A DNA stretch of 64,000 nt from Escherichia coli (GTDB lineage: Bacteria > Pseudomonadota > Gammaproteobacteria > Enterobacterales > Enterobacteriaceae): NCBI RefSeq assembly GCF_003790525.1, contig NZ_CP033635.1, one strand, 5' to 3'. A program made the translations under genes and the position numbers. Shown one piece after another: positions 43,920 to 45,123 of this stretch; position 1 is the stretch's first letter, and each line of letters opens with the position of its first letter. A model generated the notes under the pieces. It searched no databases, had not been told where the DNA came from, and worked only from the letters and a program-made list of their open reading frames with translations.

Positions 43920-44552
43920 TTATTTCACCAGTTCGGGCCATAAACGCAAAGTCGTTCGGGCAATCTGCATCAGTTTTTCCAGCGATGCACCTTCGCGTGC
44001 GCTGATCGACATCCCCTGAATAATACAATTAAGGAATTCTGCCAGATGCGTCACGTCACAGTGGGTCGGGATTTCCCCGCGCGCTTGTCGTTGACATAAA
44101 AACTGCTGCAAAGTGCGCTCTTGCATCGCATGGCGTGATTTCAGCGTATTGCCGATATCTCCGGAATCCGGGGAGAGGGTGGTGCAGTTGTTGATCATAA
44201 AGCAGCCAGCCGGGGTGTCTTTGCTGGTAAAGCAGTTGGCGATGGCAGCAAAATAGTCAGCCAGCGCAGACTCCACGCTTTTCTCTTCACAAAACAGCTG
44301 TGCTTCATGCTTAGCGGCAAAACGATCGATATAGCGGTCGAGTACGGCGCGGAATAACCCCTCTTTGTTGGTAAATTCCGCGTATAGCGTGGGCGCTTTA
44401 GCTCCGGTCGCTTCAACGAGGTCCGCAAGAGAAGTCGCTTCATAACCGTGTTGCCAGAACAATTTCATGGCCTTATCAAGCGCGGCATCCCTGTCGAACA
44501 CTTTTGGGCGGCCACGGCTTTTTTTTACACATTGTGTTGAGTCAGTTGCCAT
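43920..44552 (-). CDS. comR: TetR-family transcriptional repressor ComR (YcfQ)
   Basis: Start MATDSTQCVKKSRGRPKVFD gives 210 aa; N-terminal TetR helix-turn-helix. Confidence 0.9.
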   Translation of the reverse strand: MATDSTQCVKKSRGRPKVFDRDAALDKAMKLFWQHGYEATSLADLVEATGAKAPTLYAEFTNKEGLFRAVLDRYIDRFAAKHEAQLFCEEKSVESALADYFAAIANCFTSKDTPAGCFMINNCTTLSPDSGDIGNTLKSRHAMQERTLQQFLCQRQARGEIPTHCDVTHLAEFLNCIIQGMSISAREGASLEKLMQIARTTLRLWPELVK

Positions 44553-44707
44553 GATGCCGTTGTACCTGGTGACTGTGAATGAAAGGTTATTATAAAAATA
44601 ATCACCTCCGTTCACCAGTCCAGATCCCATAAAAATAATTGCTTTCTATTTAACTGAAATTTAAAGATTTTCAAATTAATTAATGATTGTTATAAAAAAT
44701 ATCTTGT

Positions 44708-44725
44708 ATGTGATCCAGATCACAT
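44708..44725. promoter_or_regulatory. Palindrome ATGTGATC-ca-GATCACAT (CRP-consensus-like) in the comR/bhsA divergent region
   Basis: TGTGA-N6-TCACA with both half-sites perfect; contains two GATC Dam sites; about 70 bp upstream of bhsA. Confidence 0.5.
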
Positions 44726-44792
44726 CTATCATTTAGTTATCGATCGTTAAGTAATTGCTTGCGACGTCATTCATCTGCATAAGGCCACTATT

Positions 44793-45050
44793 ATGAAAAA
44801 CGTAAAAACCCTCATCGCTGCGGCGATTTTAAGCTCAATGTCATTTGCCAGCTTTGCGGCTGTCGAAGTTCAGTCAACGCCAGAAGGCCAACAAAAAGTC
44901 GGTACTATCAGTGCTAACGCGGGGACAAATCTGGGATCGCTGGAAGAGCAGCTGGCGCAAAAAGCGGATGAGATGGGCGCAAAATCTTTCCGTATTACTT
45001 CTGTAACCGGTCCGAATACCCTCCATGGAACAGCAGTAATTTATAAATAA
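44793..45050 (+). CDS. bhsA: Stress-resistance outer-membrane protein BhsA (YcfR)
   Basis: 85 aa with signal peptide; sequence match. Confidence 0.93.
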   Translation: MKNVKTLIAAAILSSMSFASFAAVEVQSTPEGQQKVGTISANAGTNLGSLEEQLAQKADEMGAKSFRITSVTGPNTLHGTAVIYK

Positions 45051-45090
45051 GCATTAACCCTCATTAATGCCTGCTACTGCTGATTTTTTC

Positions 45091-45123
45091 CCCGCGACAT
45101 GCCGTGTCGCGGGGATTTTTTTA
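45091..45123 (+). terminator. Intrinsic terminator after bhsA
   Basis: ccccgcgac...gtcgcgggg hairpin followed by a T7 run. Confidence 0.85.

Follow-up and report, generated by a model that had tools for sequence, protein, structure and literature searches.

The divergently transcribed genes comR and bhsA of Escherichia coli share an intergenic region that holds a perfect palindrome with two Dam methylation targets. The question raised by this arrangement is which protein the palindrome serves: cAMP-CRP, the TetR-family repressor ComR that is encoded beside it, a regulator whose binding depends on Dam methylation, or none. This was examined in a stretch of 64,000 nucleotides of E. coli DNA (64 kb, analysed as a whole and referred to here as the window), in orthologous spacers from other enterobacteria, and in published data.

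The palindrome and its genomic context

The palindrome, ATGTGATCCAGATCACAT, is located at 44708-44725 in the 240-bp spacer between the two genes. comR (also ycfQ; CDS 43920..44552, minus strand) encodes the TetR-family repressor of bhsA, and bhsA (also ycfR or comC; CDS 44793..45050, plus strand) is the gene controlled by the promoter with the CRP site; both were assigned from open reading frames and annotation. Written as ATGTGATC-CA-GATCACAT, the element is an 18-bp perfect palindrome, and it contains TGTGA-N6-TCACA without a mismatch at 44709-44724 (core TGTGATCCAGATCACA). It was noted that this is the sole match to TGTGA-N6-TCACA within the 64-kb window, even with one mismatch permitted. 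The two GATC sites, which are targets of Dam, lie inside the palindrome at 44712-44715 and 44718-44721. Their positions in K-12 are 1168993/4 and 1168999/1169000, with a third GATC of the region at 1169023/4.

The 1.2-kb stretch around the palindrome is 100% identical to E. coli SMS-3-5, in which comR and bhsA are annotated, and it was found, with the same two genes annotated, in 5424 of 5426 complete E. coli genomes. The 36 nt around the site were identical in 5321 of 5422 E. coli genomes (98%). A look-up of the exact BhsA sequence for bhsA genes lacking comR returned only the standard E. coli context; according to the literature, comR is absent from E. fergusonii. Downstream, a strong terminator hairpin of bhsA was observed at 45089-45115, and the K-12 annotation places a 3'-end sRNA, BhsB, in the region corresponding to 45011-45122 of the window, where Rfam gave matches to unrelated sRNAs only, all of them below threshold.

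Match to the CRP motif and published binding

Perfect inverted repeats with 8-bp arms and a 2-nt gap numbered four in the window, compared to approximately one in shuffled sequences; the remaining three were found at 16970, 27568 and 35030. Palindromy alone does not go beyond chance, and it is the CRP match, together with conservation, that lies far beyond chance. We scored the site with a symmetrised, leave-one-out position weight matrix (PWM) derived from the 106 other CRP sites of a ChIP-seq table from enterotoxigenic E. coli (ETEC). The 16-mer scored 21.4 bits of a possible maximum of 21.97 and ranked first against the 106 in-vivo CRP sites, the best of which reached 20.1 bits. The runner-up in the window scored 12.2 bits, and the top score among 50 shuffles was 16.1. 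On direct reading, 18 of 22 positions agree with the textbook CRP consensus AAATGTGATCTAGATCACATTT.

CRP binding at the bhsA site is established knowledge that is already published and present in databases, as can be seen from a ChIP-seq 16-mer, a cited EMSA and database listings. The abstract of the 2007 study by Zhang and colleagues is said to report CRP binding upstream of ycfR by EMSA. In the CRP ChIP-seq data of Haycocks et al. 2015 (PMC4287617) for ETEC H10407, a peak at 1274886 is listed with the site TGTGATCTGGATCACA and the genes ycfQ/bhsA; this site, given as high-confidence, is the reverse complement of the 16-bp core at 44709-44724. ETEC H10407 is a different strain from that of the window, with the 36-nt core region being identical in 98% of E. 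coli genomes. A later paper cites Zhang et al. 2007 for binding of CRP upstream of ycfR by EMSA, and Westphal et al. 2016 list bhsA among the CRP-cAMP regulated genes. In a study of CRP feed-forward loops based on EcoCyc and RegulonDB, bhsA belongs to a loop of the incoherent type-2 class, with CRP as a repressor. The DUF1471 paralogues ybiJ and yahO, which lie outside the window, are also CRP targets in the ETEC ChIP-seq table, and CRP control may therefore be common to this family of small proteins.

Through this site, bhsA, a strongly stress-induced gene for an outer-membrane protein, is tied to carbon status by one of the best CRP sites of the genome. Because the CRP site is already in the literature and databases, finding it again adds little. 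Two by-products were obtained from the analysis. One is a predicted sequence-level model of the bhsA promoter, which runs from the A-tract and the -35 through the CRP site in the spacer to the -10, with a candidate ComR operator at the start. The other is that one GATC is conserved to a degree that CRP does not require.

Conservation across enterobacterial genera

We scanned for ComR in one genome per species and obtained 80 loci; at 72 of them, bhsA is divergent from comR and separated from it by 238-250 bp. The alignment comprised 73 orthologous spacers from approximately 17 named enterobacterial genera, including Escherichia, Salmonella, Citrobacter, Enterobacter, Lelliottia, Leclercia, Kosakonia, Phytobacter, Trabulsiella, Cedecea, Buttiauxella and Siccibacter. 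Across these spacers, GTGA (44710-13) and GATCACA (44718-24) were kept in 70-73 of 73, and the central positions 44714-17 were just 55-62% conserved, as was the first T (62%). Fixed pentamers with a free centre are the conservation pattern of CRP, as also seen in the profile of in-vivo CRP sites. Only Escherichia (4 of 73 spacers) had the left GATC and arms that are perfect over 8 bp.

Second, more divergent comR-bhsA cassettes were observed in Kosakonia and in a soil MAG (L078, L080 and L081). These cassettes keep the CRP site, the predicted -35 and -10 elements and both palindromes of the spacer, indicating that the regulatory module was duplicated or transferred as one unit.

The conservation pattern also bears on whether the palindrome could be a product of chance, or a DNA or RNA hairpin with no protein partner. 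Approximately one perfect 8-bp-arm palindrome is expected at random per 64 kb, which is the point in favor of such a reading. Against it, the CRP core is fixed over approximately 17 genera with a variable centre, and CRP occupancy has been published from ChIP-seq. The single-strand folding energy of -4.6 kcal/mol (z = -1.8) is unremarkable for a hairpin, and Rfam gives no match at the palindrome. The conservation and the ChIP-seq data in effect refute a chance palindrome or hairpin, and we leave it hardly any probability. The initial annotation had described a palindrome with TGTGA-N6-TCACA and twin GATC sites between comR and bhsA and had suggested a CRP site; the sequence is present at 44708-44725 as described, and the CRP site is borne out by the near-top PWM score, by the pentamers fixed across orthologues and by the identical 16-mer in published ChIP-seq. 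We record 44708..44725 (core 44709-44724) as an unstranded cAMP-CRP site on the basis of the PWM, the ChIP-seq table and conservation.

The predicted bhsA promoter and the position of the CRP site

From conservation and scans of the orthologues, we infer a sigma-70 promoter of bhsA around the palindrome. Its predicted -35 element is TTGTAT in E. coli (44704..44709, plus strand), and TTGACG is aligned at 44703-44708 in 66 of the 73 spacers. The predicted -10 element, TATCAT, is located at 44727..44732 on the plus strand, with a predicted start at approximately 44739; each fixed position of TATnAT is kept in at least 69 of 73 orthologues. Directly upstream of the -35 lies a conserved A-tract (44694..44699, plus strand), with A in 68-73 of 73 spacers at 44694-44697 and in 58 of 73 at 44698, and its position suggests that it is possibly UP-element-like. 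In L010 and L043, the orthologous spacers covered by a promoter scan, TTGACG-18-TATGAT/TATCAT, with 10 of 12 matches, was the sole promoter-like match, and it is directed toward bhsA. A promoter scan of the window did not call the bhsA promoter, because the -35 of E. coli matches at just three of six positions.

The near-consensus site for a cAMP-CRP dimer would therefore have its 16-bp core between the -35 and -10 elements, centred at approximately -22.5 and spanning approximately -30 to -15 relative to the predicted start at ~44739. Because the CRP site fills the predicted spacer of the promoter, repression by promoter occlusion is likely. At high cAMP, CRP would fill the spacer and exclude RNA polymerase, and bhsA would be repressed; ComR would add further repression, most likely through the neighbouring palindrome TATCGATCGTTAA at the start. 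We consider this the best explanation of the site, that is, that CRP in the -35/-10 spacer excludes RNA polymerase and represses bhsA besides ComR, and give it a probability of roughly 0.7. The occlusion geometry would agree with the sign recorded in databases, the repressor sign being taken from the database-derived network paper.

A contrasting reading is that CRP acts here as an activator, either of bhsA from a start further downstream or of the divergent comR. CRP sites mostly activate, the site is listed under ycfQ as well as bhsA in the ChIP-seq table, and the feed-forward-loop class implies a recorded link from CRP to ComR. Toward bhsA, however, there is no acceptable -10 at the -41.5 spacing, and in the database class of bhsA, CRP is a repressor. 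The likely -10 of comR is a perfect TATAAT (44589..44594, minus strand), predicted from a conserved comR-proximal block; this block, cATTATAAAAAtAat at 44589-44602, adjoins comR and lies approximately 125 bp from the CRP site. In four of the loci (L059, L065, L073 and L074), bhsA has been lost, as have the CRP site and both CGATCG palindromes, and these genomes keep comR with its TATAAT block alone. As the site is lost along with bhsA while comR stays, it belongs to the bhsA promoter and not to that of comR. Activation by CRP at this site is quite unlikely on this evidence. It was noted that in the same four loci an ldtC-like sequence adjoins comR upstream (locus positions ~1000-1500).

The candidate ComR operator

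The initial annotation had also proposed that the palindrome at 44708-44725 could be an operator of ComR. In such a reading it would be bound by ComR alone or be shared with CRP, and copper would release ComR. The palindrome is indeed an inverted repeat that separates a TetR-family gene from its divergent target. It also overlaps the predicted core promoter, and reviews report in-vitro binding of ComR to the comC promoter region. A TetR-type operator would be expected to keep both half-sites wherever the repressor is kept, and this was not the case at 44708-44725. Outside the CRP pentamers, positions 44714-15 of the left arm vary, T being kept in 24 and C in 40 of the 73 spacers, against a fixed G and A in the right arm, and the perfect 8-bp arms are confined to Escherichia.

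A second palindrome provides a better candidate. The imperfect 28-bp palindrome CATTTAGTTATCGATCGTTAAGTAATTG (44730..44757, unstranded), identified from its inverted repeat and conservation, has as its core TATCGATCGTTAA at 44738-44750, which is invariant or nearly so in the 73 spacers and overlaps the predicted start of bhsA. Overlap with the start site is a classic position for a repressor. The GATC inside the TATCGATCGTTAA palindrome is kept in 70 of 73 spacers, and the palindrome is invariant where ComR is 68-97% identical to that of the window. Judged from sequence, 44730-44757 is the best candidate for the ComR operator, 27 bp downstream of the CRP palindrome. Relative to the ATG of bhsA, this second palindrome spans -63 to -36 and the CRP palindrome -85 to -68. 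A review that summarises Mermod et al. 2012 gives a ComR site 60 bp upstream of comC, which fits the former span better than the latter.

A weaker upstream copy of the TATCGATCGTTAA motif is located at 44681..44693 (unstranded), reading TAAYGATCGTTAT in other genera and degenerate, as TAATGATTGTTAT, in E. coli; its GATC is kept in 30 of 73 spacers, and the two copies lie 57 bp apart, centre to centre. ComR ChIP-exo data list three weak peaks only (cspA, metR and uxuA) and none at bhsA. The absence of a peak speaks against ComR at the CRP palindrome, but the experiment is weak, and because it gave only three weak peaks elsewhere we regard it as uninformative. Taken together, the asymmetric conservation of the arms and the better fit of the invariant palindrome at 44738-44750 disfavor the proposed operator at 44708-44725, and we consider a role of that palindrome as a ComR operator improbable. 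The nearest solved relative of ComR is CifR of Pseudomonas aeruginosa, a TetR-family repressor.

Further conserved blocks were noted in the predicted 5'UTR of bhsA (44758-44778), with CGAC at 44762-65 and TCATCTGC at 44771-78. A consensus fold of the 5'UTR gave just a 4-bp stem (TCGT/ACGA) without compensatory changes. These blocks may represent either a third half-site for ComR or a small hairpin in the RNA.

GATC sites and Dam methylation

We then considered the two GATC sites of the palindrome, of which the left (44712..44715, unstranded) occurs in Escherichia only (4 of 73 orthologous spacers) and the right (44718..44721, unstranded) is universal (73 of 73). GATC occurs in 20% of in-vivo CRP half-sites, and 3 of the 106 sites other than that of bhsA have it twice. 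As the CRP consensus itself includes GATC, a pair of such sites is nothing special. The left site is absent outside Escherichia, so that selection does not act on the symmetric pair. The right GATC is a different matter, since it is kept in 73 of 73 spacers, yet the G and A at those positions are found in only 41% and 53%, respectively, of in-vivo CRP half-sites, and their counterparts in the left half are variable. The conservation of the right GATC exceeds what CRP needs, possibly as a conserved Dam target, through a requirement of the promoter spacer or for another protein.

These sites could be part of a switch sensitive to Dam methylation, in which the GATC state alters the binding of CRP or another protein and gives heritable or heterogeneous bhsA expression, as at pap and agn43. 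Alongside the universal right GATC, the comR/bhsA spacer contains four GATC sites compared to approximately 1.1 expected, and one paper terms CRP methylation-sensitive. Methylation-sensitive binding, which the initial annotation had raised as a possibility, has indirect support from published work, in which a GATC of the bhsA/ycfR non-coding region was variably methylated in two species. In E. coli ZK126, one non-coding GATC of bhsA (1072523/4) varies during long-term stationary phase, on both strands, with q = 0.05-0.07 (Westphal et al. 2016). In a methylome of S. Typhimurium, the methylated fraction of a GATC in the ycfR region (1,255,516) rises with ycfR transcription under H2O2 (R = 0.68), with ycfR going from ~24 to ~6,700 FPKM.

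The reported changes are modest, however, as these q and R values indicate, and a passive footprint of a bound repressor explains them equally well. The variable GATC could be any of the four in the spacer, as the transfer of ZK126 1072523/4 onto K-12 through a yccS anchor gave offsets that disagree by 400-550 bp. The bhsA locus was unmentioned in a 6mA-seq preprint and in another Salmonella methylome paper, and no report of bistable bhsA expression was found in the literature. A methylation-sensitive switch is unlikely in our assessment, with methylation sensitivity of the CRP site as such being possible. The simplest reading of the variable methylation is a passive footprint, in which a bound repressor would block Dam and induction would expose the site. 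Under the occlusion model of CRP at bhsA, the bound protein would hinder Dam and leave the non-coding region with partial, condition-dependent methylation.

A more speculative proposal is that the promoter-proximal GATC of the CRP site and the GATC of TATCGATCGTTAA are kept as Dam targets, and that competition of Dam with CRP and ComR sets a methylation pattern that in turn acts on the affinity of these repressors, leading to heterogeneity of BhsA in the Enterobacteriaceae. We hold this to be a long shot. If it were true, it would imply cell-to-cell heterogeneity of BhsA, a stress and biofilm protein, across the Enterobacteriaceae.

Comparison with known regulatory systems

Dam/regulator competition switches are known from pap with Lrp and from agn43 with OxyR, and unmethylated GATCs protected by CRP are known from mtl and cdd. 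The bhsA region resembles these systems in having a GATC inside a regulator site and in the variable methylation reported for its non-coding region. It differs from the pap-Lrp and agn43-OxyR switches, which are heritable ON/OFF systems, in that the effects reported at bhsA are small. The CRP sites with twin GATCs, namely those of hyfA (CGTGATCAAGATCACA), sdaC (AGTGATCTTGATCTCA) and one ETEC-specific site, likewise have GATC in both halves, where it arises from the consensus; at bhsA, in contrast, only the promoter-proximal GATC is conserved between genera.

With the operators of TetR-family repressors, the palindrome shares its placement between a TetR-family gene and a divergent target. The conservation of 44708-44725, however, fits CRP and not a fully symmetric operator with 8-bp arms.

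With canonical CRP sites, the palindrome shares TGTGA-N6-TCACA, T/A inner flanks, a fixed core with a free centre and published in-vivo binding of CRP. The bhsA site is nearer to the consensus than any of the 106 other chromosomal in-vivo sites, and it is located in the predicted -35/-10 spacer (approximately -22.5), compared to the usual activating positions near -41.5, -61.5 and -92.5. The promoters cyaA P2 and gal P2 are repressed by CRP, which overlaps the core promoter in both. The mechanism proposed here for bhsA, steric exclusion of RNA polymerase, would be the same, as suggested by the sequence and by the database class of the gene.
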